DNA of 64,000 nucleotides from an uncultured Thioalkalispiraceae bacterium (GCA_964654445.1 CAZZIS010000004.1:2898-66897), one strand, 5' to 3'; positions 6,652-21,631 are shown, counted from the first letter of the stretch. Made by a program: numbers and translations. The notes: generated from the letters alone by a model not told the origin.

Positions 6652-6884
6652 TGAGAGTGGACTCCATGAAGGTTTGGTTTATGTTGTTCATTTTCATTTA
6701 TATCATATGATGAATGTGTGTATGTTTAATATTGAACATGTGCGTGGCAAATAGAAGTGTATAGTTGAAACAAAAATGTCCGTCATTTCTGTTGTAGTCT
6801 TCTATTTAATCTGTAGTGGCATAGTTAATTTGGCCACCTAACTAGAGGTGATATCATTCATCTCGTAACATGATAGGTGGAAAA

Positions 6885-7196
6885 ATGAGTAAGAAAAGCA
6901 GACCAAACTTTAAACCCGAGTTTCGTTTAGAAGTTGCAGAACTTGTTGTTAAACAAGGCTACTCCGTACGAGAAGCCGCTGAAGCAATGAATGTCGGCAA
7001 ATCAACGGTTGATAAATGGGTACGGCAACTTAAAGATGAACATAATGGCATTGCGAACAAACCTAATGCATTAACACCAGACCAACGAAAAATAAAAGAA
7101 CTTGAAAAGCGAATTAAACAAATCGAATTGGAGAAAGAAATCCTAAAAAAGGCTACGGCTCTCTTGATGTCGGACTCGATGAACAATTTGCGATGA
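6885..7196 (+). CDS. IS3-family transposase OrfA (HTH / leucine-zipper protein)
   Basis: MSKKSRPNFKPEFRLEVAELVVKQGYSVREAAEAMNVGKSTVDKWVRQLK... is a typical IS3/IS911 OrfA. An AGGTGG ribosome-binding site precedes the ATG at 6885; the track start at 6870 is less likely. Confidence 0.9.
   Translation: MSKKSRPNFKPEFRLEVAELVVKQGYSVREAAEAMNVGKSTVDKWVRQLKDEHNGIANKPNALTPDQRKIKELEKRIKQIELEKEILKKATALLMSDSMNNLR
7145..7151 (+). promoter_or_regulatory. programmed -1 ribosomal frameshift heptamer A-AAA-AAG (orfA to orfB)
   Basis: In the orfA frame the codons are cuA AAA AAG, which is the canonical IS3-family slippery motif in the correct phase. orfB (7193) is in the -1 frame relative to orfA (6885). Confidence 0.7.
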
Positions 7197-7804
7197 TGTC
7201 ACAACTCAAAGAGAGCTATGCTGTAACAGAACTTTGCCAGGCATTTGATGTTCATCGCAGCAGTTATAAATATTGGGTTAAACGTTCTCAAACAATTAAC
7301 CCTATAAAATTAAATGAACAGTTGTTGGTAAAAACAATATTTAGCGAGAGCAAAAATTCTGCCGGAGCGCGAACGATATCAGAAATAGCAACACAACGTG
7401 GAACACCATTAAGTCGTTATCGTGCTGGACGTTTAATGAAAGCCTGCCAACTTCATAGTTGTCAGCAACCGAAACACCGATATAGAAAAGCGAAACAAGA
7501 ACACGTAGCGATACCTAATCACTTAAACCGTGAGTTTGATGTCATGGAACCCAATAAAGTATGGTGCGGTGATGTAACGTATATTTGGGTGGGAAAACGC
7601 TGGGCTTATCTTGCCATTGTGATGGATTTGTTTTCACGTAAACCGATTGGTTGGGCGATGTCATTTTCTCCCGACAGTCAGTTAACAAGCGATGCTTTAG
7701 CAATGGCTTTTGAGTCACGAGGAAAACCGAAAGAAGTTATGTTTCATTCTGATCAAGGCTGCCACTATACGAGCAGAAAGTTTAGACAACAGCTGGAGAT
7801 GTAG
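7193..7804 (+). pseudogene. IS3-family transposase OrfB (DDE/rve integrase core), truncated
   Basis: 203 aa, versus about 280-290 expected. The first Asp (WCGDVTY) and second Asp (FHSDQGCHYTS) of the DDE triad are present. The region that should hold the Glu about 35 aa downstream is replaced by unrelated AT-rich DNA. Confidence 0.85.
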
Positions 7805-8923: not shown

Positions 8924-10096
8924 TCAAAGAAAAGAAAAATTAAATGGAAATGAAACTGTTAATTGAAAGTCAGGAGAATCAGAAGTCAAACCAATACTAA
9001 GGTCGACATCAACAGCAGAAGATTCACCTTTTGCTTTGGATAATCCTATCGCAAAGGTGGATGTTGTCATCTCTGTACCGCTAAGTTTTTGTCCATTAAT
9101 TTCTGTTTTATCAGTATAGAGAAATTGGAAGTTAAAACTTAGTGATGTATCAAAATTTAGCGCCAGTGCCATACCAAGGTTGAGACCACTACTAATACCT
9201 GGTTTAACATACCCTACTTGCTTCCCCATACCCTCTGTATAATTTACGGAAAAACTGCCAAAAAGAACAATTGGATCTGCACTCGTCATTGAGGTTAGAG
9301 ATAAGCTATAGGTATTAAAACCACTTCCCAAAGCGAGTTCATTAGAACTTAACAGTCGATAAGGATCTTTTCCTGTTGCCGTTTTCCAGTTAAGCGCTAT
9401 TACTGAATCCGGCCAATCGCTGTGTGATTTAATGAGTTGATAACTTAGACCAAGAGAAATATCGCCAAGTCCAGATATTTTTTTTTCTTCATGCTTTCCA
9501 TCACCTCTGAATGATTCTTCTTTCTCATAACCCAAGGGAATAACAACATCCATTTGCATATCCTGGCCAAGTCCTAGCCTAAAAGAATGGTTATTTGTGA
9601 TAATATCACGACTTACTTTTTCTGAGACAATGTCTCCGACAACCAGAACTGGAAAAATTGTAAAACCATCAACCACAATATTGTCATAAGAGGAATGAGC
9701 ATATGACAAACTTGGTTCATAAATAAACTGGTATTTACCCAGCAGCATCCCCCCTTCTTTACTCAACCTTTGTTCAAAAGCAGTTTTAATCAGTTTAGAG
9801 TTTTCCTCACTTTCCTTCTCCAGCTTGGCCTTAACTTCCGGATCCACCTGTGGGTTGGTATGATCATTCTCATCTTTGATGATAACGGCTTTGTCACTAA
9901 CTGAATCCTCAAGGTGTTCTATACGCTGTATAAGATTCTTAATAACTTTCTCATATACCATGTTGCTTTGTTTAAGCTGAAGGATTTTCTGGTTTATCTC
10001 ACCACTTTGTGAAGTTATGCTGGCATAGTCATCAGCCACGCCTATGTGACTAATTAACAGCAGAGCAATAACAATTATAAAACGACTAAATTTCAT
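8924..10096 (-). CDS. outer-membrane beta-barrel protein with N-terminal coiled coil (FapF-like architecture); putative secretion pore of the cluster
   Basis: 390 aa. Signal peptide MKFSRFIIVIALLLISHIGVA. A heptad-like helix at about aa 30-70 (GEINQKILQLKQSNMVYEKVIKNLIQRIEHLEDSV), then a charged linker. The remaining roughly 280 aa have an alternating hydrophobic/polar beta-strand pattern ending ...TVSFPFNFSFL. The start codon is 1 nt after the peptidase stop. Confidence 0.7.
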   Translation of the reverse strand: MKFSRFIIVIALLLISHIGVADDYASITSQSGEINQKILQLKQSNMVYEKVIKNLIQRIEHLEDSVSDKAVIIKDENDHTNPQVDPEVKAKLEKESEENSKLIKTAFEQRLSKEGGMLLGKYQFIYEPSLSYAHSSYDNIVVDGFTIFPVLVVGDIVSEKVSRDIITNNHSFRLGLGQDMQMDVVIPLGYEKEESFRGDGKHEEKKISGLGDISLGLSYQLIKSHSDWPDSVIALNWKTATGKDPYRLLSSNELALGSGFNTYSLSLTSMTSADPIVLFGSFSVNYTEGMGKQVGYVKPGISSGLNLGMALALNFDTSLSFNFQFLYTDKTEINGQKLSGTEMTTSTFAIGLSKAKGESSAVDVDLSIGLTSDSPDFQLTVSFPFNFSFL

Positions 10097-10097
10097 A

Positions 10098-10844
10098 TTA
10101 AGGAGAATGTACCACCATTCGTCTAGTTAAAGGCACAGTAGGGATACGACTAAGAAGACGATATGCATAATGAGGATTTGGAATCGCAGCCTCCATAGTC
10201 TGTGGCGAAAGAATGCTTTTAGATGGTTTTTTTTTCTGTTTAGCCAATAGCTGTTTTTCTTCTGTGGTTACAACATAGAAAGCTATTTTACTTTTCCACA
10301 TTCTCATAAACCGATCTGCAGGCAAAGAAAGATTCCCAAATGCTGGATCACCAACGAGGATATGATTTCCAACACGTTTTTTAAATATAACAAAGTGATC
10401 TAGCTCTTTAATTCGTATCGGGAGTATTGCAGGTATAGAAAACGTTTCCAGATCATCAATCGTCATATCACCATAACCGAGACCTTGTAGACCAACAGCC
10501 CTGACAAAACGCTTAAGATCATATAATGAAAATCCACCTCGCTTCTTAACAACAACTGGGTCACTATTTTTTAAGATACTTAAAGTTATAGCCATTTCAG
10601 AATATGGTCGACCATTATGATAGGTTAAAATTGTTGAAAGAGCGGCAGCACCGCAACTGATGTCCCACCCTTGTCTTGTTAATTTATCCCAACGAAGTTC
10701 ATATAAGCTCTTAACATTACTTTTATATCGCATATTTCCAAAGTTTATTCCAACCGGGCTGGCGTAAAGTTGAAAAGAAAATATATTGAAAAAAATAAAA
10801 AGTAATAATAAAATCATATAAAGACTTGAGTTTTTATATGTCAC
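10098..10844 (-). CDS. stand-alone peptidase C39-like (bacteriocin-processing-type papain-fold cysteine peptidase) with its own N-terminal signal/anchor
   Basis: 248 aa. Hydrophobic N-terminus (LYMILLLLFIFFNIFSFQLYASP). Gln58-x5-Cys64 sits in RQGWDISCGAAALSTIL, His150 in LDHFVIFKK and Asp166 in VGDPAFG. The His-to-Asp spacing is 16 residues. It is not fused to an ABC transporter. The start is GTG at 10844, with an alternative ATG at 10817. Confidence 0.85.
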   Translation of the reverse strand: MTYKNSSLYMILLLLFIFFNIFSFQLYASPVGINFGNMRYKSNVKSLYELRWDKLTRQGWDISCGAAALSTILTYHNGRPYSEMAITLSILKNSDPVVVKKRGGFSLYDLKRFVRAVGLQGLGYGDMTIDDLETFSIPAILPIRIKELDHFVIFKKRVGNHILVGDPAFGNLSLPADRFMRMWKSKIAFYVVTTEEKQLLAKQKKKPSKSILSPQTMEAAIPNPHYAYRLLSRIPTVPLTRRMVVHSP

Positions 10845-10854
10845 TATTCCTGTC

Positions 10855-11250
10855 TCACCTGGCTAAAAGAGTATTCAACTGATTTATATTGCCAATTGTA
10901 GAATTCACATTGATATTCAAGTTCAACAAAATCTGAATAGGAGAATTAACTGCATTGATGTTAATTAGTGAGCTTAAGTTTGATTGAGCATTATCCATCA
11001 AATGTAAACTTGATGTCTGGTTATAGAGTGACATAGGGACAACGATAACTTCTCCATCTACACTTCCCTTTCTTCCACTATAGCGAAAAGGAATACGGGT
11101 TAACGCTTCCATGCTTTCATGGTCTGAGTTAGTGTTACCTGCGGTGATTGCATTGAGTTGCTGGTCGCTTAACTCCTCAAAGCCCCTCACCCCGGCTGAA
11201 AAAAGAATTATTAGAAAAAAGGAAATAAGGACCGTGTATTTTGTATTCAT
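10855..11250 (-). CDS. small secreted paralog (X4) of the cluster cargo family: signal peptide, AG-type leader motif and a single C-terminal N-rich motif
   Basis: MNTKYTVLISFFLIILFSAGVRG / FEELSDQQLNAITAG|N ... LSSLININAVNSPIQILLNLNINVNSTIGNINQL. A GGTGG ribosome-binding site lies 5 nt upstream of the ATG at 11250; the track start at 11262 is less likely. Confidence 0.7.
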   Translation of the reverse strand: MNTKYTVLISFFLIILFSAGVRGFEELSDQQLNAITAGNTNSDHESMEALTRIPFRYSGRKGSVDGEVIVVPMSLYNQTSSLHLMDNAQSNLSSLININAVNSPIQILLNLNINVNSTIGNINQLNTLLAR

Positions 11251-11270
11251 AATAACCACCATAAAGCAGC

Positions 11271-12557
11271 CTAACGCTGCTGGATAAAACGATTATGTTG
11301 CTGCATTGACAACCGAGACACAGTAGATGTTCCTGTAATGACTGGCAGTCTGCTTAAGTTAAATGCATTAGCCGCAACTGATGCAACAGCATTTACCCCA
11401 TTGAAGACCCGCATGTTTTTTTGCGCGCTCTCGCTTAGTAATACAGTGCTACTGTTATTTACCGAAAGGCTTCCATCGCTTAGTGCGAGCAACTCTGCCT
11501 CTGCACCTGTCATCTGGCCACCTGTAAAAATAGAGTGTTCATACGATTCTATAAATGAATTCTCAGCGACGTCTACCGCTTTGTATTCTTCTACAAGCTT
11601 GTCATCCTGAACGACTGGTTCAATCTGTGTATCACCCGAACTTTCGGGTCTAATAAAAGTGGAATCCATAACCCTTAATTTCTTATCTACATCAAATCGA
11701 GCGATGGTTACATCCCAACACCAAATAAAAAAACATAATTCGACATTTGCTTCTGCATCGAGCCTGAAGCGTGCATCGTTGGCAACAATTAATCCACTGC
11801 CCTTAATATCAACGCCAGCACCGTAGTTAAGCTCATCAACCTGAAAATCTAATAAATTTAACCACCCTAATTGATTTTTAGTAATAATTTCCGGTGGTTT
11901 TTCCTTCAGCTGTTCTAGTGAAGTATAACGTTTGCCTACTGTCACAGAATTGACACGCGTATTGCTGCTCACGTATTCGTTGATACGTGCCTGGTCGACA
12001 TAAGAATAGGCAACGTAGTTGTAGTTATTAGAACCGGAGCTGCGTAACTCGCTCTTTTCATAACGATGGTTTGCAATGGATGTGGTCAGGTTACCTTTTG
12101 TACGGTGACGCTGGCTAAGGTCATTGATTTGGTTAATCTCAATTTCAGATGTTACATCATCTACAGTGATGGAGTCGCCGTTAAAGATATTGTTAGTTGA
12201 TACTATGTCACTTGACAGTACATTTTCAAGATTAAGTGCAATTGCATTCTGTTGTGTTGTTCCATAAAGCAGAAGTTTTCTTTTGCGCTCTACATCAATT
12301 TTACTTTGTAAAATAACAAAAAGTTCAGGGTTCAATTCCATACCGTCGATGCTTTGTGGTTGTCGAAGTTTGGTATAACCGGAGTTCTTTTCTGGCTGTT
12401 GCTGCTCTTGAGGCAGGCTCTGGCCTTGAAGCTGTGGGTCGATTCCTCCTCCGCTAACACCGGCAAGTTCAGTATCAGAGAGTGTGGTTGCGGCAAATGA
12501 ACTCCCTGAAAATAAAAGTCCAAAGGTAACAAATAATGTAATGATAAAATATTTCAT
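11271..12557 (-). CDS. secreted cargo-family protein X3 (divergent paralog) with a perfect double-glycine leader motif after the signal peptide
   Basis: 428 aa. Signal peptide MKYFIITLFVTFGLLFSGSSFA, then ATTLSDTELAGVSGG|G. The N-terminal block is NAIALNLENVLSSDIVSTNNIFNGD. The C-terminal block LLSESAQKNMRVFNGVNAVASVAANAFNLSR is alignable with X1 and X2. Confidence 0.75.
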   Translation of the reverse strand: MKYFIITLFVTFGLLFSGSSFAATTLSDTELAGVSGGGIDPQLQGQSLPQEQQQPEKNSGYTKLRQPQSIDGMELNPELFVILQSKIDVERKRKLLLYGTTQQNAIALNLENVLSSDIVSTNNIFNGDSITVDDVTSEIEINQINDLSQRHRTKGNLTTSIANHRYEKSELRSSGSNNYNYVAYSYVDQARINEYVSSNTRVNSVTVGKRYTSLEQLKEKPPEIITKNQLGWLNLLDFQVDELNYGAGVDIKGSGLIVANDARFRLDAEANVELCFFIWCWDVTIARFDVDKKLRVMDSTFIRPESSGDTQIEPVVQDDKLVEEYKAVDVAENSFIESYEHSIFTGGQMTGAEAELLALSDGSLSVNNSSTVLLSESAQKNMRVFNGVNAVASVAANAFNLSRLPVITGTSTVSRLSMQQHNRFIQQR

Positions 12558-12615
12558 AATCCTTTACGCTTATAAATATATAATACCGAGTTGTGTGAAC
12601 CCCTGTTATAAAGTG

Positions 12616-13809
12616 TTAGTTGCCGTGATGCACTGTATTAAACTGGTTGAGTACTAATTTCGATCTGCTACCTTCAAAGCTTTTGGTACGAGTAATATTT
12701 GTGCCATTTGCCACGTTACTACCGATGGCATTAACGATATTCATTCCTTTTGCATCTTTTTGTGCTGAGTCTGAGAGTTCAAGCGTTACATCGGAGTTAA
12801 GGTCAAGAGTTGAGTCATCGATAACAATATATTCAGCTCTTGCATTTTTGAGTTCAAAGGGAGAACGGTAGATATTTGTTTGTACTTCTGAGTATGAGCT
12901 TTGTCCAGACTGATGATTTTCTATTATATCTAAAGTAGAGTTGTCTGTTTTAGTATTGGTTGTTTCGAAAAATACGCTATTTGCATTACACGAACCTATA
13001 GCTACTCCGCAACCAACGCCATTTATGATCAATCGCATATCTGGCAACTTCACCTGGGTAACTAGTACAAGACCCCCATCTGCTGTAAGGGGTTTACCAT
13101 CGCCGGCAGAGCTTATTTTTCCATCAAGTGCCACGGCAATATCAGCTGAGCCGCCTTCAAAGGTAATATCTGAGTAACCAGCTACAGCGGCACCCAGCCC
13201 GAGATGTCCTGAAAAGTCTATCTTATCGCCAAGTTTAAAGTTGAAATGTGTATTAACCCCGGCGTTGCTAAATGTAGTAGATTCATGAGTCTTTTCTAAG
13301 ATGTTTGTGACGCCATGATAGTCGATGATATTACTTGCGTAACTTACATTGCCGGAACGGTTCAGAGTCTCTGTATGGTCAGCTTCTGATCTTAGATAGC
13401 CAAAGATCATTGCAGTTCGAAGTTGTTCTTGAGTGATATTGTTTAACTGGTTAATCTTAACTTCGGAATTTGTATCACTGTTTTCTTTTGTTGCAGTAAC
13501 TCCGCTACCATCCCAAATATTAACAACATTGGCCACCGCGGACGCGGCACTATTTACAATGTTAAGCCCGGTTGTGTTTTGCTGAGCCTCTCCGTTTAGG
13601 TTGAGCTCTGATATACTGTTAGCGATAGCCTCTGAACTTTGTCCAACAACGACGCCGCCACCTTCGTTAGTATTACCGGCCGTTACCTGATCCATAACTC
13701 TATCTTCAAGTACAATAGGTGTGGAATATACAGCTTGGACCTGAAGCAATAAGCTACTCAAAAGTAGTATTGGTATACTTAATAATAATTTTTGATTCTT
13801 ATCTGACAT
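12616..13809 (-). CDS. secreted cargo-family protein X2 (paralog of X1)
   Basis: 397 aa. Signal peptide, then VLEDRVMDQVTAG|N. Shares with X1 the blocks GLNIVNSAASAVANVVNIWD, INQ..QEQ, GVGCGVAIGSC, YRSPFELKNARAEYIVIDDSTL and LELSDSAQKDAKGMNIVNAIGSNVANGTNITRT. Confidence 0.75.
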   Translation of the reverse strand: MSDKNQKLLLSIPILLLSSLLLQVQAVYSTPIVLEDRVMDQVTAGNTNEGGGVVVGQSSEAIANSISELNLNGEAQQNTTGLNIVNSAASAVANVVNIWDGSGVTATKENSDTNSEVKINQLNNITQEQLRTAMIFGYLRSEADHTETLNRSGNVSYASNIIDYHGVTNILEKTHESTTFSNAGVNTHFNFKLGDKIDFSGHLGLGAAVAGYSDITFEGGSADIAVALDGKISSAGDGKPLTADGGLVLVTQVKLPDMRLIINGVGCGVAIGSCNANSVFFETTNTKTDNSTLDIIENHQSGQSSYSEVQTNIYRSPFELKNARAEYIVIDDSTLDLNSDVTLELSDSAQKDAKGMNIVNAIGSNVANGTNITRTKSFEGSRSKLVLNQFNTVHHGN

Positions 13810-13894
13810 AACTGCTTTGCATCCCTATATATAGAGCCGATTAATAATTTAATCGGAAACTATTATAATGCTGCTAACGGTCGACTCTGCCAGT

Positions 13895-13921
13895 TTGCCT
13901 TGACCGTTACAGTCAAGGCAA
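13895..13921 (-). promoter_or_regulatory. intercistronic stem-loop after the first cargo gene (10-bp perfect stem TTGCCTTGAC / GTCAAGGCAA, 7-nt loop)
   Basis: Read directly from the sequence. A second 8-bp stem, CCGATTAA-TAAT-TTAATCGG, lies at 13837-13856. There is no clear U-tract, so it is more likely an attenuator or mRNA-stability element than a full terminator. Confidence 0.4.
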
Positions 13922-13937
13922 AAAGCAGATTACAGAT

Positions 13938-15188
13938 TTAACGGCTGTGACTAATTACATTGGACTGTTGCAGAGCCATTGCACCACCATTAGCTAGTCC
14001 ACTGGTGCGGGCAACGTTAACCCCGTTAGCCACTGCGCTTCCAGAAGCGTTGACTACATTCATAGCACTAACATTGCTTTGCGCACTACCTGAAAGTGTC
14101 AGATTGAATGAGGTAGTAACAGCAAGACTTGAGTCATCTACTACAATGTACTCGGCCTGTGCATTACTTAGTTCAAAGGGCGAGCGATATGTCTCAGTCA
14201 AATTGTCAGTAAACTCACTATCACCGATGCTGCTGACTTTCTCATTATCCATAATGGAATTGTCAGTGGTATTAGAAGTGGTCACAGTTGTTTTACCACC
14301 GGCACCACATGATCCCATTAAAACTCCACAACCTGCACCAGTTATATCGATCGTGATATCAGGTAGTATCAACCGACCGTATAGTGAGACATCATCACCG
14401 TTTACATCCATGCCACCGTAACTATCTTTGGTTTCAGTACCACCGCTTAGAATTGTAACTTCATCCTTATGAGCTATAACATTCCCACCAACAGCTAAAC
14501 CAAGATGTACTTCACCACCGTCGAGATCGAGACCTAATGTTCCAGCACCTGCGCCACCTTTACCAACGTTGGTATCAACACTTCCTCTGGGATCTGCTGT
14601 ACCACCAGAATTGAGATCTCCTTTAATAGTAGTATCAACCCAAGCTGTGCTCTCTGAAGTCTCCGAACCTGTAAGAGCCTGATAATCAATAATATTATTG
14701 TTACGATCCAGACTATCATTGTGAGTTTCGGAGCCAGTTCGTATCACTTCTATAAAAGTATCAGCCTCGGGTCGAGAATAGTTAGGCATGGATGCAGAGC
14801 GTCTCTGTTCCTGATTGATCATATTTGATTGATCGACCATCATCTCTCCACTATCTGCGTTTGCATCGTTTGCATTGACATCCCAGATGTTGACACCATT
14901 AGCAACGGTCGACTCGGCGCTATTGACAATGTTGAGCCCTTTAGCTCCACTTTGCACTTCACCGCTTAAATCAACACCGCCAGTTTGATTAATAGTTGCT
15001 TGAGAGCTGTTTCCGATAATGGCACCACCACTCCCTCCGGGACTCGTGTTTGCATCAGTACCAGCAGTGACTTGATTTAATGTCAAATCATCAAGCGTTA
15101 CAGGTTCTGAATAAGCATTAGGTAAATATAAGAGACAGAGTAATGGCAATCCAGCCGCCAGTCGAAAAGGTATGTTTTTGGTATACAT
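13938..15188 (-). CDS. secreted cargo-family protein X1 (first gene of the operon; candidate major subunit)
   Basis: 416 aa. A strong AAGGAGGG ribosome-binding site lies upstream. Signal peptide MYTKNIPFRLAAGLPLLCLLYLPNAYS, then EPVTLDDLTLNQVTAG|T. The N-terminal block is GLNIVNSAESTVANGVNIWD (14880-14963). There is a Cys pair in GAGCGVLMGSC. The C-terminal block is LTLSGSAQSNVSAMNVVNASGSAVANGVNVART (14013-14090). Composition is G/N/S/T/A-rich. Confidence 0.75.
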   Translation of the reverse strand: MYTKNIPFRLAAGLPLLCLLYLPNAYSEPVTLDDLTLNQVTAGTDANTSPGGSGGAIIGNSSQATINQTGGVDLSGEVQSGAKGLNIVNSAESTVANGVNIWDVNANDANADSGEMMVDQSNMINQEQRRSASMPNYSRPEADTFIEVIRTGSETHNDSLDRNNNIIDYQALTGSETSESTAWVDTTIKGDLNSGGTADPRGSVDTNVGKGGAGAGTLGLDLDGGEVHLGLAVGGNVIAHKDEVTILSGGTETKDSYGGMDVNGDDVSLYGRLILPDITIDITGAGCGVLMGSCGAGGKTTVTTSNTTDNSIMDNEKVSSIGDSEFTDNLTETYRSPFELSNAQAEYIVVDDSSLAVTTSFNLTLSGSAQSNVSAMNVVNASGSAVANGVNVARTSGLANGGAMALQQSNVISHSR

Positions 15189-15960
15189 GATGACTTCCCT
15201 CCTTGTGCATTAAGATTATTCTTTGTTCACTAATAAATAACCTACTCCTGTTAGTTGAAATTTACGTTGATCTGGATCATTTTCAATAATAATAGGAAGA
15301 ATAAATAAATTCAGATTTCTCTTATTTAATTCACTTATTTAATGTGTTACTAGTATTTCAAGCTTCTTTTATGTTTCATTAACAATTTATAATTCAACTT
15401 GAGATTTTTAATATGTATATTTTTTCTTTTCATGTTTTAAATTTATCTGATATTTAAAATATTAAATATTATTCTGTGACTATAAACAATAAAAACTACT
15501 ACTAAAGAAAACTCAATAATTTACTGCTAATAGTTGATACATAAAATGCCTAATAACAATACAGCCTGGATACCGTTAGTTGCTGCAATTATATTTAAGT
15601 TAATAATGGTTTAATATTGCGTTACTCATATTTATTAATATGTAATAAACGATTGGTACAACAAAACTCCAATTCACAAATCATACTAATGATAAATAAC
15701 TTATTCTAAATGTGTATTTAATGTATTGATAACTTTAATAAAAAAGATATTTATTATTAAAGTCATATACATAAGTAACCGATACTATTTGATAAATACT
15801 CTATAATGATAATAAGACATACCGCACACGTGCATTAATTTAAGGACAAAAACATGCGTGAGAAACAATATAATCTAGCCGTAATGATAAGGAACTATTC
15901 AATTATTCGAGTATCTAACCTTTACTCTTGCCTCAATTTAGTAATTCACAAGGATTAGTC
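15189..15960. promoter_or_regulatory. extremely AT-rich divergent control region of about 770 bp between the cargo operon (-) and fadE (+)
   Basis: No ORF of 60 aa or more in any frame. Long A/T runs are present (for example tttaaatttatctgatatttaaaatattaaatattatt). It must contain the promoters of both divergent operons, but I could not pinpoint -35/-10 boxes confidently. Confidence 0.4.
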
Positions 15961-18222
15961 ATGAATAATAAAAAAGATCACTGGCGCTTAAAATGGCTTA
16001 GCGCGCCATTAATGAAGCTATTCCGAAAAGTGACACCGACAATGTCACGCACTGAACAAGAAGCGCTGGAAGCGGGATCAGTCTGGTGGGATGGTGAACT
16101 TTTTAGTGGAAAGCCTCAATGGAATAAACTTCTCTCATTACCTGCTCCGTCTCTTAGTAAAGAAGAACAGGCCTTCATGGATGGCCCGGTAAATACTTTA
16201 TGTAATATGTTGGATGACTGGCAAATTACACAAGAAGATAAAGATCTACCTGAAGATGTTTGGCAGTATATTAAAGATAATGGCTTTTTTAGCATGATTA
16301 TACCCAAGCACTATGGCGGTAAAGATTTCTCTGCTTATGCACATTCACAAGTGGTTATGAAAATTTCAACCCGTAGTATATCGACTGCGGTTACAGTAAT
16401 GGTACCCAACTCACTGGGGCCCGGTAAATTATTACTGGAATATGGTACTGAAGAACAAAAAGATCATTACCTGCCTCGTTTAGCTAAAGGTGAAGAAGTC
16501 CCCTGCTTTGCTTTAACCAATCCACATGCTGGTAGTGATGCCGGCGCTATTCCTGATTTTGGTATTGTTTGCAAAGAAAAGTTTGATGGAAAAAAAGATG
16601 TGTTGGGTATTCGCTTAAATTGGGACAAACGTTATATAACACTTGGCCCTGTTGCAACATTGCTTGGGCTTGCTTTTAAACTTTATGATCCGGATCATCT
16701 TCTGGGTGAAGAAGAAGAGATTGGTATCACTCTGGCACTTATTCCGACAGATACTAAAGGTGTTGAAATTGGTAATCGTCACTTCCCATTAAATATGGTT
16801 TTCATGAATGGTCCAAATTATGGTAAAGATGTTTTTATCCCTATGGACTGGGTGATTGGTGGAATTAAGCAGACGGGCCAGGGCTGGCGTATGTTGATGG
16901 AATGTCTATCAGATGGACGTGCAATATCATTACCCGCCTTGAGTACCGGCGCAGGTAAGCTGGCAAGTTTATCTGTGGGTGCTTATTCCCGCGTACGTCA
17001 GCAATTCAAAATGCCGATTGGAAAATTTGAAGGCGTTGAAGAGGCCCTGGCACGTATTGGTGGTTTAACCTATATTATGGATGCATCACGTTCGTTAACA
17101 TTGGCTGCATTAGATAATGGTGAAAGTCCGTCGGTTATCTCTGCCGTAGTAAAATATCATTTAACGGAGAGTATGCGTAAAGTCGTTAATGATGCCATGG
17201 ATGTTTTAGGTGGAGCAGGAATTTGTCTTGGTCCTAAAAATATTATGGGTCGGGCTTATCAGGCTATTCCAATCAGCATTACTGTTGAAGGAGCAAATAT
17301 TCTCACTCGCTCGATGATTATTTTTGGCCAGGGTGCCATTCGTAGTCATCCTTTTATCTATAAGGAGCTGGAATCTTTATCAGAACATGACGAAAATAAA
17401 GCCCTGGAACAATTTGATCGAGCCTTGTTTGGTCATGCAAGTTTCTTTATAACAAATACAATTCGTTGTTTTTTTAATGGCGTGACGAATGCCTTGTTTA
17501 TTCGAGCTCCTTCTCGAGCTAACAGGAAAGTTAAACGCTATTATAAACAAGCAACAAGGATGAGCGCTTCATTTGCCCTGGTTACTGATATTTCTTTAAT
17601 GATCCTGGGTGGTTCACTAAAACGACGTGAAAAAATATCGGCCCGTTTAGGTGATATTCTCAGTCATCTTTATATGCTTTCTGCAGTGTTAAAACATTAC
17701 CAGGATCAGGGTGAACATGAGTCAGACTTACCGTTTGTTCATTGGGCTTGTCAGTATAATTTACAACGTATTCAAACTGCCTTTAATGGGTTTTTACATA
17801 ATTTTCCAAACCGGCCTATTGCATTGTTATTACGCTGGATTATTTTCCCCTGGGGACGTCTTTATGCACCACCCAATGACAAGTTAGGTCATGAGATTTC
17901 TAAATTATTGATTAACCCTTCCGAAATGCGTAACCGTTTAACTGCAGGTGTGTTTATTCCTGAAAATGAAAATGAAGCGATAACACAACTTGAAATCGCT
18001 TTCCTTAAAGTTGTTGATGCTGCACATTTAGAAAAAAAGATTCGTTCATTTCAAAAAGCATTTAAACCTGAATATGCAGGGTATGAAGTGATGCTAAAAG
18101 CCGCATTAGAAGAAGGTATCATTGATAAGGATGAAGAATCCATTCTGCAACAGGCTAACGAAGCCCGTACAAAAGTAATTGGTGTTGATGATTTTACTTT
18201 TGACTTATCGAGAAAAAAATAA
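15961..18222 (+). CDS. fadE: acyl-CoA dehydrogenase, FadE type
   Basis: MNNKKDHWRLKWLSAPLMKLFRKVTPTMSRTEQEALEAGSVWWDGELFSGKPQW aligns with the E. coli FadE region ...[29 protein letters not shown]. An ACAD core follows. The track start at 15928 is TTG; I prefer the ATG at 15961, which has an AAGGA ribosome-binding site. Confidence 0.9.
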   Translation: MNNKKDHWRLKWLSAPLMKLFRKVTPTMSRTEQEALEAGSVWWDGELFSGKPQWNKLLSLPAPSLSKEEQAFMDGPVNTLCNMLDDWQITQEDKDLPEDVWQYIKDNGFFSMIIPKHYGGKDFSAYAHSQVVMKISTRSISTAVTVMVPNSLGPGKLLLEYGTEEQKDHYLPRLAKGEEVPCFALTNPHAGSDAGAIPDFGIVCKEKFDGKKDVLGIRLNWDKRYITLGPVATLLGLAFKLYDPDHLLGEEEEIGITLALIPTDTKGVEIGNRHFPLNMVFMNGPNYGKDVFIPMDWVIGGIKQTGQGWRMLMECLSDGRAISLPALSTGAGKLASLSVGAYSRVRQQFKMPIGKFEGVEEALARIGGLTYIMDASRSLTLAALDNGESPSVISAVVKYHLTESMRKVVNDAMDVLGGAGICLGPKNIMGRAYQAIPISITVEGANILTRSMIIFGQGAIRSHPFIYKELESLSEHDENKALEQFDRALFGHASFFITNTIRCFFNGVTNALFIRAPSRANRKVKRYYKQATRMSASFALVTDISLMILGGSLKRREKISARLGDILSHLYMLSAVLKHYQDQGEHESDLPFVHWACQYNLQRIQTAFNGFLHNFPNRPIALLLRWIIFPWGRLYAPPNDKLGHEISKLLINPSEMRNRLTAGVFIPENENEAITQLEIAFLKVVDAAHLEKKIRSFQKAFKPEYAGYEVMLKAALEEGIIDKDEESILQQANEARTKVIGVDDFTFDLSRKK

Positions 18223-18255
18223 ATATCCGGAAAGATAAATATAAGAGAAAAAATA

Positions 18256-19566
18256 ATGGATAGTCCAGAACAAAGAAAAAGTTTACCGAAACCGATATAT
18301 ATTGTTGATGGCAGTCGAACGCCATTTTTAAAAGCAAAAGGAAAACCTGGTGAATTTGCCGCGGTTGATCTTGCTTTAGGTTGTTCTCGCCCTTTACTGG
18401 CACGACAGCCTTTTTCAGCAGATCAACTTGATGAAGTGATTGTTGGTTGTATGATGCCAGGTCCCGATGAAGCAAATATTGCACGAATAATAGCATTACG
18501 ACTGGGATGTGGTAAAAAAGTTCCGGCCTGGACGGTACAACGCAATTGCGCATCGGGCATGCAAGCTCTGGATTCAGCCGCGAAAGATATCTCTTTAGGA
18601 CGGGCAAACCTTGTTCTTACTGGCGGTGTTGAAGCCATGAGTCATGCACCGGTCTTATTAAATAATGAGATGGTTGGTTGGTTAGGTCGCTTGGCGATGT
18701 CTAAAAAGCCAATGGACAAATTAAAAACGTTTGCAGCATTACGCCCTCGTCACCTTAAACCCATTATCGGTTTACTACGAGGTTTAACTGATCCGGTTGT
18801 CGGCTTGTCTATGGGACAAACTGCAGAAAATATCGCGCATCGTTTTAATATTGATCGTCTGACTATGGATACTTTTGCAGTACAAAGTCATCAACGGCTG
18901 GCAGCGGCACAAGAAGCCGGATTTTTTGATGAAATTGAAGCCTTGTATGATCTAAAAGGACATTCATTTTTAAATGATGATGGTGTTCGAACGGACTCTT
19001 CAGTAGAACGTTTAGCAAAACTTCGTCCTGTCTTTGATCGACATTTTGGTAATGTTACCGCAGGTAACAGTGCACAAATTACTGATGGTGCGGCAATGCT
19101 TTTGCTTGCAAGTGAAGAAGCGGTTAAAGAATTCAAGCTTCCTGTTATGGGTAAACTGATTGATAGTCACTGGGCAGGACTTGAGCCTGCACAAATGGGG
19201 CTTGGTCCTGTTCATTCAATTACACCCATTTTATCACGTAATGAGTTATCAATTGCTGATATTGATTACTGGGAAATAAACGAAGCCTTTGCTGCTCAAG
19301 TATTAGGTTGCCTGGCTGCCTGGCAAGATGAAGCATATTGTAAAGAGGAACTTGGTCTGGAAGCCGCCCTGGGAAAAGTTGATCAGAGTAAACTCAACAT
19401 AGATGGTGGTGGCGTAAGTTTAGGTCATCCTGTAGGTGCAAGTGGAGCACGAATTGTTCTGCATCTTTTAAATGTACTCAAGCGTAAGAAAGCGAAACGT
19501 GGTATCGCCAGCCTTTGTATCGGTGGTGGTCAGGGTGGCGCTATGTTGATAGAGCGTGGTAAATAA
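18256..19566 (+). CDS. fadI: acetyl-CoA C-acyltransferase (3-ketoacyl-CoA thiolase), FadI-like
   Basis: 436 aa. Active-site Cys in VQRNCASGMQAL and C-terminal SLCIGGGQGGAMLIERG. The thiolase-before-hydratase gene order matches fadIJ. Confidence 0.85.
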   Translation: MDSPEQRKSLPKPIYIVDGSRTPFLKAKGKPGEFAAVDLALGCSRPLLARQPFSADQLDEVIVGCMMPGPDEANIARIIALRLGCGKKVPAWTVQRNCASGMQALDSAAKDISLGRANLVLTGGVEAMSHAPVLLNNEMVGWLGRLAMSKKPMDKLKTFAALRPRHLKPIIGLLRGLTDPVVGLSMGQTAENIAHRFNIDRLTMDTFAVQSHQRLAAAQEAGFFDEIEALYDLKGHSFLNDDGVRTDSSVERLAKLRPVFDRHFGNVTAGNSAQITDGAAMLLLASEEAVKEFKLPVMGKLIDSHWAGLEPAQMGLGPVHSITPILSRNELSIADIDYWEINEAFAAQVLGCLAAWQDEAYCKEELGLEAALGKVDQSKLNIDGGGVSLGHPVGASGARIVLHLLNVLKRKKAKRGIASLCIGGGQGGAMLIERGK

Positions 19567-19594
19567 AAAGCTGGCTTAATTTAGAGAATATATA

Positions 19595-21631
19595 ATGACT
19601 AAGAAAAAATATAAAAACTGGAAAGTAGAACATGATAATGATGATATTGCCTGGTTACATCTGGATGTGCCTAAAAGTAGTGCTAATGTTCTTAATGAAC
19701 AGGTCATTAGTGAGCTTGATTCTATAGTTAATGAGTTACTTGATAAAACACCAACCGGCGTCGTTATTCTGTCAGATAAGGAAAGTGGTTTTATTGCGGG
19801 TGCAGACATTAATGAATTTACAACGTTTGAATCTGAGGAAGCAGCGCTGGAAAATATTCAGCGTGCCCATACAATTTTCAATAATATAGAAAATCTAAGC
19901 TGCCCCACTGTTGCCCTGATTCATGGTTTTTGTTTGGGTGGTGGTATGGAACTCGCTCTTGCCTGTCGCTATCGAATTGCGGAAGAAGACTCATCACGTT
20001 TAGGTTTACCTGAAGTCAAATTAGGTATTCACCCCGGTTTTGGCGGTACAGTAAGAAGTATTGAAAGAATGGGAAGTTTTTCTGCGTTAGATTTAATTTT
20101 AACGGGTCGAACATTAAAAGCACGGCAGGCTAAAAAAGCACGCTTAATCAATTATGCAGTACCTGAACGTCATTTAATTACAGCAGCAAAACAAACGGTT
20201 CTTAAACCTCCAAAAATACCAGCATTACCCTGGTGGGAAAAAATTGTTAATCACCGTTTGGTTCGTCCTTTTGTTGCAAAAATGATGATTAAAAAAATCT
20301 CTGCGCGCGCTGCTCGATCTCATTACCCTGCTCCATACGCCATTATAGATTTATGGTTGAAACATTTAAATAATCGTACGCGAATGCTTGAAGAAGAAGC
20401 AAAATCTATTGCTCATTTGCTCGTTGGAAAAACAGCGCAAAATCTTATTCGTATCTATAAACTCACTGATCAACTTAAAGGTTTGGCCAAGGATAAATCG
20501 ATTGTCATTAATCACATTCATGTGATTGGTGGTGGCGTTATGGGCGGTGATATTGCTATCTGGTGTGCTTTACAGGGCTATAGCGTTACTTTGCAAGATC
20601 AACGTCACGATACCCTGGCGGCGGTGATAAAACGTGCTGCAAAACTGTATAAACGCCTGCTTAAACAAAAACGTCTGGTTAATAGTGCCTTAGACCGTTT
20701 AACACCGGATATTAAGGGTAACGGACTTGTAAATGCTGACGTTGTTATTGAAGCAATTTTTGAAGATGCAGAAGTTAAATGTAATTTATTTAAGGAGATA
20801 GAACCAAAATTAAAAAGAACCGCAATTATTGCAACAAACACATCAAGCATTCCTCTTGAACAATTATCGGGTTCATTAAAAAAACCTGATCGCCTGGTAG
20901 GATTACATTTTTTTAATCCGGTATCAAAAATGCCATTAGTTGAAATTGTTGTAGGTGAAAAAACCAGTAAAAAAGCACAACAAGTAGCTACTACTTTAAC
21001 GAAAAAAATTAAAAAACTACCCTTACCAGTTACAAGTACTCCTGGTTTTCTGGTTAATCGTATTCTCATGCCTTACCTGACAGAGGCCGTTACTTTATTT
21101 GAAGAAGGTGTCCCGATTACTGTAATTGATAAAATTGCCTTGCAGTTTGGAATGCCGATGGGACCAATAGAACTAGCAGATACCGTTGGTCTCGATATAT
21201 GTCTTCATGTGGCTGAAAATTTGGCAGAATCAATGCCTATAACCGTTTCTGAACATTTACGCGATCTGGTGAATAAAAAAATACTCGGTAAAAAAACAGG
21301 AAAAGGATTTTATGTTTTTAAAAAAGGAAAGTTGGTTAAACCAAAAATCAGAAGTAATTATACTCCACCAGGTGATGTTAAAGAACGGCTTATTCTAAGA
21401 ATGATTAATGAAACCATGGCTTGCCTACGTGAACATGTTGCAGATTCAAAAGATTTAATTGATGCAGGTATTATTTTTGGCACAGGTTTTGCGCCATTCC
21501 TCGGTGGTCCTCTGCAGTACGTTAAGGATCGTGGTCAGGAACAAGTGTTAATGGCGTTGGAGAATCTTGAGAAAGTTCATGGTCCTCGATTTAAACCTGA
21601 TGATGGTTGGAAAACAATTGTGATTGAGTAA
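19595..21631 (+). CDS. fadJ: multifunctional enoyl-CoA hydratase / 3-hydroxyacyl-CoA dehydrogenase, FadJ/FadB-like
   Basis: 678 aa. Crotonase domain (GFIAGADINEF, GFCLGGGMELALAC), then an NAD Rossmann fold (VIGGGVMGGDIA) and the 3HCDH C-terminal domain. Confidence 0.88.
   Translation: MTKKKYKNWKVEHDNDDIAWLHLDVPKSSANVLNEQVISELDSIVNELLDKTPTGVVILSDKESGFIAGADINEFTTFESEEAALENIQRAHTIFNNIENLSCPTVALIHGFCLGGGMELALACRYRIAEEDSSRLGLPEVKLGIHPGFGGTVRSIERMGSFSALDLILTGRTLKARQAKKARLINYAVPERHLITAAKQTVLKPPKIPALPWWEKIVNHRLVRPFVAKMMIKKISARAARSHYPAPYAIIDLWLKHLNNRTRMLEEEAKSIAHLLVGKTAQNLIRIYKLTDQLKGLAKDKSIVINHIHVIGGGVMGGDIAIWCALQGYSVTLQDQRHDTLAAVIKRAAKLYKRLLKQKRLVNSALDRLTPDIKGNGLVNADVVIEAIFEDAEVKCNLFKEIEPKLKRTAIIATNTSSIPLEQLSGSLKKPDRLVGLHFFNPVSKMPLVEIVVGEKTSKKAQQVATTLTKKIKKLPLPVTSTPGFLVNRILMPYLTEAVTLFEEGVPITVIDKIALQFGMPMGPIELADTVGLDICLHVAENLAESMPITVSEHLRDLVNKKILGKKTGKGFYVFKKGKLVKPKIRSNYTPPGDVKERLILRMINETMACLREHVADSKDLIDAGIIFGTGFAPFLGGPLQYVKDRGQEQVLMALENLEKVHGPRFKPDDGWKTIVIE

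Follow-up and report, generated by a model that had tools for sequence, protein, structure and literature searches.

A Fap-like secretion operon with a new family of repeat-bearing cargo proteins, putative subunits of an extracellular fibre, in an uncultured Thioalkalispiraceae bacterium

What do secreted proteins build when they carry the same asparagine-rich block at both ends? This question is raised by a 64,000-nucleotide (nt) stretch of DNA from an uncultured Thioalkalispiraceae bacterium (GCA_964654445.1, CAZZIS010000004.1:2898-66897; the whole stretch is hereafter termed the window), for which an earlier note, made from the sequence alone, had described proteins bracketed in this way. 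They are encoded by an operon of six co-directional genes at 8924-15188, all on the minus strand, in the order X1-X2-X3-S4-C39 peptidase-outer-membrane protein (OMP), of which the first four encode cargo and the last two a secretion machinery related to that of the Fap system. These four proteins are probably the building blocks of an undescribed extracellular fibre, and the reading of them as subunits of a fibre or matrix, belonging to a Fap-like system whose cargo family is new, is held here with moderate confidence.

A motif of about 20 amino acids (aa) had been noticed near both ends of X1, X2 and X3, and all six copies were recovered where they had been placed (residues 84-103 and 375-394 of X1, 81-100 and 355-374 of X2, and 107-126 and 383-402 of X3); the recurrence stands, while the length does not, these 20 residues being the core of a module of 56-63 aa (~60 residues). 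The residues L, Q, N, N, S, N ... Q-x-N are invariant and equally spaced at both ends of the three proteins. In alignments of 28 and 113 family members, they fall in X1 at Q79-N86-N89-S93-N100...Q120-x-N122 towards the N terminus and, with the same spacing, at Q370-N377-N380-S384-N391...Q408-x-N410 towards the C terminus. Comparison of the N-block and C-block profiles aligned 56 columns with an hhalign probability of 98.9 % (E 2.7e-17). A hidden Markov model (HMM) trained solely on blocks of homologues from outside the window, and run against the six-frame translation of the 64 kb, returned six strong matches (domain E 1e-12 to 3e-25) corresponding to both ends of X1, X2 and X3, a weak match in S4 (E 0.039) and no further match anywhere in the 64-kb window. 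S4 nevertheless carries a seventh copy, as its family profile matches the N block at 94.6 % (E 7e-8) and the C block at 93.5 % (E 2e-7), and L, Q, N, S, N, Q and N are invariant when the seven window blocks are aligned. On the minus strand, the X1 blocks occupy 14805..14993 (N, residues 66-128) and 13941..14120 (C, residues 357-416); those of X2 (N 13435..13623, C 12619..12801) and X3 (N 12105..12293, C 11274..11465) were delimited by the block profiles and the specificity HMM, and the single S4 block (10858..11031) by block alignment and family-profile comparison.

The smaller elements that the earlier note had listed proved to be family features. The G-x-x-Q / SAQ element ahead of each block contains a glutamine that is invariant among homologues, the INQ..QEQ block is conserved and corresponds to the final strand of the N block, and the YRSPFEL..NAQAEYIVVDDSSL block (YRSPFEL...AEYIVVDDSSL) is nearly invariant. 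The Cys pair GC-x-V-x-x-G-x-C occurs in at least 90 % of X1/X2-type proteins and not in the X3 type; in X1 it reads GCGVLMGSC (14307..14333, minus strand; C287 and C294), and in X2 GCGVAIGSC (12988..13014, minus strand). The variability of the protein middle holds family-wide, with insertions and deletions. The description of X3 as a degenerate copy was rejected, since the X3-type proteins (430-625 aa) form a second, conserved class of paralogues with a member in each complete locus. The impression that the motif differs from the repeats of curli and FapC agrees with the profile searches, in which the cargo gives no Pfam or NCBIfam match at E <= 1; likewise, neither the cargo nor its multi-block relatives match a haemagglutinin/FhaB-type repeat, an autotransporter beta-helix repeat or a known adhesin repeat in Pfam or NCBIfam. 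It is supported that the block is a self-similar beta-forming unit outside known repeat families.

X1 (13938..15188, minus strand; an open reading frame (ORF) of 416 aa) is an A-type cargo protein that comprises a Sec signal, a double-glycine leader, the N block, a central zipper domain with the Cys pair, and the C block. X2 (12616..13809, minus strand; 397 aa) is a second A-type paralogue with 37-38 % identity to X1. X3 (11271..12557, minus strand; 428 aa) represents the B type, with a leader and two blocks around a different central domain that lacks the Cys pair, and S4 (10855..11262, minus strand; 135 aa) is a mini-cargo composed of a Sec signal, a leader and one block. The mature proteins are acidic, contain 27-43 % G/S/T/A (36-43 % in X1 and X2) and 12-15 % N+Q, and are scarce in aromatic residues, a composition that would fit a secreted beta-fibre protein.

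The family extends far beyond this bacterium. X1 has 234 homologues in a metagenome-scale database, none with a protein name or a Pfam domain. A seven-block profile, the kind of search that had been proposed for defining the family, was run against 1.84 billion representative proteins and matched 290 of them at E <= 1e-3 and 118 at E <= 1e-10. The resulting family of ~290 representative clusters is distributed among Gammaproteobacteria, Desulfuromonadota, Desulfobacterota and Acidobacteriota from sediments and saline habitats. In species-representative genomes, 26 loci were found, whose hosts include Ectothiorhodospira haloalkaliphila ATCC 51935, Marinobacter iranensis, other Gammaproteobacteria, Desulfuromusa, Desulfobacteraceae and an Acidiferrales metagenome-assembled genome (MAG). 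The gene order cargo-cargo-S4-C39-OMP is kept in ~20 loci from three or four phyla; on contigs of sufficient length, the order begins with one or two genes for A-type cargo, followed by a single longer one for the B type (430-625 aa), then S4, and lastly the genes for the C39 peptidase and FapF-like OMP. In one Deltaproteobacteria MAG (L025, 5338-10893), the S4-C39-OMP set is divergent from two cargo genes instead of lying downstream of them.

Block copy number ranges from 1 to 18 per protein, with two in most members and one in proteins of ~130 aa. Tandem arrays stand behind the same leader in P0241 (1159 aa, 15 copies, period ~70 aa), P0245 (18 copies), P0287 (12) and P0303 (9), whereas P0247 (281 aa) consists of four blocks in the order N, C, N, C without a central domain. 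Fusions of whole modules also exist, two in P0084 and at least four in P0242, with ~10 residues between a C block and the following N block. The locus of one tandem array (L035) again contains an S4-like protein, a C39 peptidase and a FapF-like OMP, and it adjoins polysaccharide-export genes. Because the block occurs in 1 to 18 copies, alone or flanking inserts, its distribution argues for a stackable structural repeat rather than a terminal tag, and arrays of 4-18 copies are what would be expected of a stackable solenoid or cross-beta layer. Among Pfam and NCBIfam models, none matched the multi-block relatives in a meaningful way; the Pfam model DUF4830 reached a summed 37.3 bits (cut-off 23.5) on residues 351-372 of P0241, with no single significant stretch in this 22-residue piece, and is probably an artefact of repetition. 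P0345 and P0254 are likewise almost wholly made of tandem blocks (within the 4-18 range) after the same leader, and in P0245 and a 1000-aa protein of L035 the block is of a divergent type resembling that of S4 (AQ..L.ALSN.N.VDSA.AVQSNIT).

A second shared feature lies at the N terminus. Each of X1, X2, X3 and S4 has a Sec-type signal peptide followed, within a few residues, by a 12-residue leader of the pattern L-x-D-x-x-L-x-x-V/I-T/S-A/G-G: LDDLTLNQVTAG in X1 (15060..15095), directly past the predicted Sec signal, and, also past the Sec signal, LEDRVMDQVTAG in X2 (13675..13710), LSDTELAGVSGG in X3 (12447..12482) and LSDQQLNAITAG in S4 (11137..11172), all on the minus strand. These leaders have the classical double-glycine consensus, in which positions -12, -7 and -4 are hydrophobic and G/A-G occupies -2 and -1; all four satisfy the PCAT leader consensus L-x-x-x-E/x-L-x-x-I/V-x-G/A-G, and the leader is kept in most homologues of all three cargo classes in related loci.

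The peptidase gene (10098..10844, minus strand) encodes a stand-alone, periplasmic C39 (double-glycine) cysteine peptidase of 248 aa with its own signal peptide. In the Fap system, this class is represented by FapD, likewise located in the periplasm, without whose catalytic Cys Fap is not secreted (PMC5557850). The window protein matches Pfam Peptidase_C39 at 3.4e-13 and, among NCBIfam models, FilB at 5.1e-30 (104.8 bits, cut-off 475) and, slightly more weakly, FapD at 4.9e-28 (97.9 bits, cut-off 330); its best match in the PDB is the PCAT protease domain 6mpz (8.9e-5). Both catalytic motifs are conserved: 24 of 25 homologues retain the Cys motif SCGAAAL, and all 25 retain the His motif DHFV. 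The homologue search recovered in-family relatives only and did not reach FapD or FilB.

Pseudomonas FapF is a channel for unfolded amyloid subunits. The last gene of the operon (8924..10096, minus strand) encodes a FapF-like outer-membrane channel of 390 aa with a signal peptide, an N-terminal coiled coil, a linker and a beta-barrel, and residues 111-387 match the FapF barrel structure 5o65 (E 1e-22). The NCBIfam FapF model scores 125.7 bits (2e-36), far under its equivalog cut-off of 700, which indicates by sequence comparison that the OMP is a homologue of FapF and not an orthologue; FilC scores 94.4 bits (8.8e-27, cut-off 630). Ahead of the barrel, a helical segment contains the R-h-x-x-h-E motif (RIEHLE), found in 23 of 25 homologues and defined for coiled-coil trimerisation in FapF, whose type of export is thought to require unfolded Q/N-rich substrates and coiled-coil guidance (PMC6173795). 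The FapD and FapF HMMs match many non-Fap proteins, indicating larger families (Dueholm et al., PMC3792158). A FapD/FapF-type machine is the kind that exports amyloid fibre subunits, and its presence here lends support to a fibre as the product.

The leader and the peptidase also invite comparison with PCAT/AMS systems. Double-glycine leaders of class II bacteriocins and lanthipeptides follow the same consensus, as exemplified by LSDTELAGVSGG in X3, and the protease fold and catalytic residues (6mpz, 4ry2) are common to the window C39 protein. However, the PCAT/AMS leader forms the extreme N terminus without a Sec signal, the protease is the cytoplasmic domain of an ATP-binding cassette (ABC) exporter and the substrates are small peptides, whereas in the window the leader comes after a Sec signal peptide, the C39 protein is a free periplasmic enzyme, and the cargo consists of beta-repeat proteins of 130-1300 aa. 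Gene inspection and the Pfam and NCBIfam searches revealed no ABC transporter in the operon.

The shape of the A-type subunit was approached by structure prediction and by covariation. The AlphaFold2 model of X1, built on a 113-sequence alignment, is all-beta with ~27 strands (pLDDT 67, pTM 0.36). Foldseek found no match to its fold in the PDB (TM ~0.05), and a search of the PDB with the cargo family profile returned only spurious antibody matches. Mean-field direct coupling analysis (DCA) of 170 A-type sequences (effective number, Neff, ~101) yielded as its strongest long-range signal an antiparallel ladder at i+j = 478 (mean 0.288, compared with 0.011 +/- 0.049 across all anti-diagonals), together with a second antiparallel ladder at i+j = 500. 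These ladders match the AlphaFold2 strand pairs exactly (143-163/315-335, 175-185/293-303 and 211-222/278-289). By covariation, the central domain is a long antiparallel zipper in which the chain runs out and back, and since the DCA and AlphaFold2 strand patterns agree on this topology, the N and C blocks are predicted to lie together at one end.

The two blocks are, moreover, coupled to each other. The top parallel offsets between them in DCA are 291 and 288 (0.148 and 0.141, compared with 0.018 +/- 0.044), which join equivalent positions. Among 172 non-redundant proteins, corrected mutual information on the N/C equivalence diagonal is 0.066, against -0.001 +/- 0.042 for non-equivalent pairs; at offsets of 1-6 residues it does not exceed 0.025. 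The likeness of the N and C blocks is 0.328 within a protein compared with 0.312 +/- 0.002 between proteins. This covariation fits an in-register association of N and C blocks. Within the block, parallel offsets of ~30 and hairpin signals were weak and mixed, compatible with a hairpin or a solenoid. A third inter-block parallel offset was observed at j-i = 321 (equivalence + 30; mean 0.144, n=34), relating residues 62-128 of X1 to 353-416 (window 13941-15005); it might reflect a ~30-residue sub-periodicity in the block or an inter-subunit C-to-N contact.

These results bear on the proposal that the subunits stack head to tail. Its premise of a self-similar beta unit holds, but the termini are probably not at opposite ends, as DCA and AlphaFold2 agree on the zipper at i+j = 478, which brings both blocks to one end. 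By analogy with the repeats and linkers of FapC, a stack of two layers, with the chain making a long excursion from one to the other, would be a better picture than an N-to-C daisy chain.

The same topology can be explained without any polymer, by a monomeric secreted surface or matrix protein whose N and C blocks clasp intramolecularly and close the base of a long beta-hairpin domain, serving as a non-polymerising adhesin or matrix component exported by a Fap-like machine. This explanation is rather unlikely. In its favour, the mutually coupled blocks are placed by covariation at the same end of the monomer, the AlphaFold2 monomer pairs N-side with C-side strands throughout, and the central domain is conserved and looks folded. 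What it accommodates poorly are the arrays of 4-18 blocks and the whole-module fusions, which show block association beyond one N/C pair, as well as S4, whose one block has no partner and which is strictly conserved in the operon, and the presence of several cargo paralogues per operon, which resembles the subunit sets of fibre systems.

A further explanation, which appears considerably less probable, regards the blocks mainly as export signals, that is, as elements for recognition by or threading through the FapF-like channel, its coiled coil or an S4 chaperone, without a structural role in the final product. The blocks are indeed the sole feature common to X1/X2, X3, S4 and the tandem proteins, they strictly co-occur with the C39/FapF-like pair, and export of the FapF type is believed to depend on substrates that are unfolded and Q/N-rich and on guidance by a coiled coil (PMC6173795). 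Nevertheless, the double-glycine leader already constitutes a dedicated targeting element, proteins of 15-18 blocks would be all signal and no passenger, and the invariant Q/N/S ladder with its predicted strand-turn-strand is typical of structural cross-beta repeats. Finally, that the proteins are secreted toxins or bacteriocin-like effectors (e.g. beta-pore-formers), matured by C39 and released through the outer-membrane channel, is very improbable, because the double-glycine leader and C39 protease, a hallmark of bacteriocin maturation, and the weak Foldseek matches of the X1 model to long-hairpin pore formers (aerolysin, lysenin, anthrax PA) are set against the meaninglessness of those matches (TM ~0.05, E > 0.01), an operon without an immunity gene or an ABC transporter, the large, acidic and repeat-bearing nature of the proteins, and related loci that adjoin polysaccharide-export genes in one case and a Response_reg + GerE regulator, preceded by a gene with a weak PilZ match, in another.

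For the preferred reading, in which X1, X2, X3 and S4 are subunits of a fibre or matrix, the following course of events can be proposed; its cleavage step, secretion route, polymerisation and individual subunit roles are what we infer. The substrates would cross the inner membrane via Sec, as their signal peptides suggest, whereupon the 12-residue double-glycine-type propeptide would be exposed. Since the propeptide matches the PCAT leader consensus and the periplasmic C39 peptidase has kept its catalytic Cys and His, this enzyme would recognise the propeptide and most likely cut after A/G-G. By homology, the substrate would then be threaded unfolded through the FapF-like trimeric outer-membrane channel. 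In assembly, the ~60-aa Q/N/S-ladder block would act as a stackable beta unit: in X1-X3, the zipper would fold back so that the N and C blocks meet in register and form a short two-layer stack at one end, the free faces of which could accept the blocks of neighbouring subunits. The resulting fibre would have a core of stacked blocks from which the variable central domains project sideways, analogous to the repeats and linkers of FapC. X1, encoded by the first gene and preceded by a strong ribosome-binding site, is the likely major subunit, X3 may be a conserved minor or specialised subunit, and S4, with its single block, could serve as a nucleator, cap or anchor.

Several considerations weigh against such a fibre. 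The X1 model is of moderate confidence and consists of long antiparallel hairpins rather than a solenoid, the single-sequence AlphaFold2 model of the 15-block P0241 is poor (pLDDT 38), and the beta-helix matches that Foldseek gave for this low-confidence model are not significant. The covariation at equivalent positions could stem from gene conversion between the blocks, and Neff is only ~100. A conserved, seemingly folded central domain with a Cys pair is unusual for a protein expected to pass unfolded through a narrow 12-stranded barrel. The cargo has no detectable homology to FapB, FapC, FapE, CsgA or any NCBIfam family, and the fibre, its amyloid property, cleavage and secretion are putative for every family member.

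Among known systems, Fap of Pseudomonas (fapABCDEF) is similar in many respects. Both have Sec-dependent substrates, a stand-alone periplasmic FapD-like C39 peptidase, a FapF-type barrel with an N-terminal coiled coil and the R-h-x-x-h-E trimerisation motif, several related Q/N-rich repeat substrates per operon (major, minor and small), and long variable linkers between repeats. FapC forms a three-layer beta-solenoid with linkers that protrude from the core (PMC12459412). The window repeat differs in its length of ~60 aa and its consensus, and two copies per subunit surround a conserved beta-zipper domain with a Cys pair; neither the FapB/FapC repeat nor any other Pfam or NCBIfam model was matched by X1, X2, X3 or S4 at E <= 1. 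Genes for FapA and FapE are absent from the six genes of the operon, no gene lies between peptidase and channel, and the machinery scores far under the equivalog cut-offs (FapF 126 bits compared with 700, FapD 98 compared with 330). Furthermore, every cargo protein in the window carries a canonical double-glycine leader, whereas Fap proteins have none and the target of FapD has been unidentified since 2017 (PMC5557850).

The Fil putative pilus system of Acinetobacter is a poorly characterised surface-appendage locus, of which FilF is up-regulated in pellicles and biofilms (PMC3203104, PMC7273844). The C39 peptidase resembles FilB and the OMP resembles FilC, but the scores are far under the respective cut-offs (105 bits compared with 475, and 94 compared with 630), and, in a comparison made by NCBIfam models alone, the cargo matches none of FilA, FilD, FilE and FilF at E <= 1. 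Curli (CsgA/CsgB, CsgG) resemble the proposed system in having extracellular fibre subunits made of strand-turn-strand repeats with invariant Ser/Gln/Asn ladders, and a short nucleator paralogue beside the major subunit. They differ in repeat length and consensus, the CsgG nonamer is unrelated to the FapF-type barrel, and curli have no C39 peptidase or leader; the Pfam model Curlin_rpt gave no match at E <= 1 in the cargo or the multi-block relatives.

On this basis, the operon is classed as a secretion system of the Fap/Fil type whose modular cargo family is new. It is tentatively suggested, with somewhat less assurance than the subunit assignment itself, that such operons represent a class of bacterial system for extracellular cross-beta fibres that has gone unrecognised, a third one alongside curli and Fap. 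It would be based on a new ~60-aa stackable block in 1-18 copies, its export would be gated by periplasmic double-glycine processing, and its substrates, unlike those of FapD, can be read from sequence. In the literature searched, there was no description of such a system, of FapD with double-glycine leaders or of a FapF-like system with other cargo.

The value of the locus lies partly in making the FapD question directly testable, as every cargo here presents, after the Sec signal and ahead of the mature part, a textbook double-glycine leader, so that recognition and cleavage by this class of protease can be put to the test. The cargo family is new, its block is missing from Pfam and NCBIfam, and its modular architectures suggest a general route to fibres with displayed domains. 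Experiments are within reach because two hosts, Ectothiorhodospira haloalkaliphila ATCC 51935 and Marinobacter iranensis, are in culture. If the product is truly a functional amyloid, it would widen the bacterial amyloid repertoire and provide a new engineerable scaffold.

Two related loci have neighbours that may touch on matrix biology. In L035 (8001-19852), the OMP of the FapF-like type is either split or joined to a Pur_ac_phosph_N-like domain at its N terminus (genes 16450-17352 and 17367-17930). Its next neighbours are a BBP2_2 barrel and a polysaccharide-export gene of the Poly_export/SLBB type, a hint of some connection with the production of an exopolysaccharide matrix. In L032 (699-1861), a Response_reg + GerE (LuxR-type) regulator, preceded by a gene with a weak PilZ match, lies upstream of P0241, an arrangement reminiscent of biofilm and matrix regulation.

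Within the operon of the window, the intergenic gaps among the last four genes (X3, S4, C39 and OMP) are 8, 10 and 1 nt, and the strong ribosome-binding site upstream of X1 reads AAGGAGG. A scan for promoters and terminators yielded no signal exceeding shuffled expectation. The annotated start of S4 (MVVIMNTKY...) may be four codons too early, the 90 % cluster representative being 131 aa long. The G+C content of the operon is 0.34-0.40 and not distinct from the rest of the window. About 1.1 kb past the 3' end of the operon, at 6870-7804 on the plus strand, two overlapping ORFs of 108 aa and 203 aa, read from their translations, resemble orfA and a truncated orfB of an IS3-family transposase. 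The upstream flank (15928-21631, plus strand) is occupied by divergent fatty-acid beta-oxidation genes, which encode a large acyl-CoA dehydrogenase, a thiolase and an enoyl-CoA hydratase/3-hydroxyacyl-CoA dehydrogenase.

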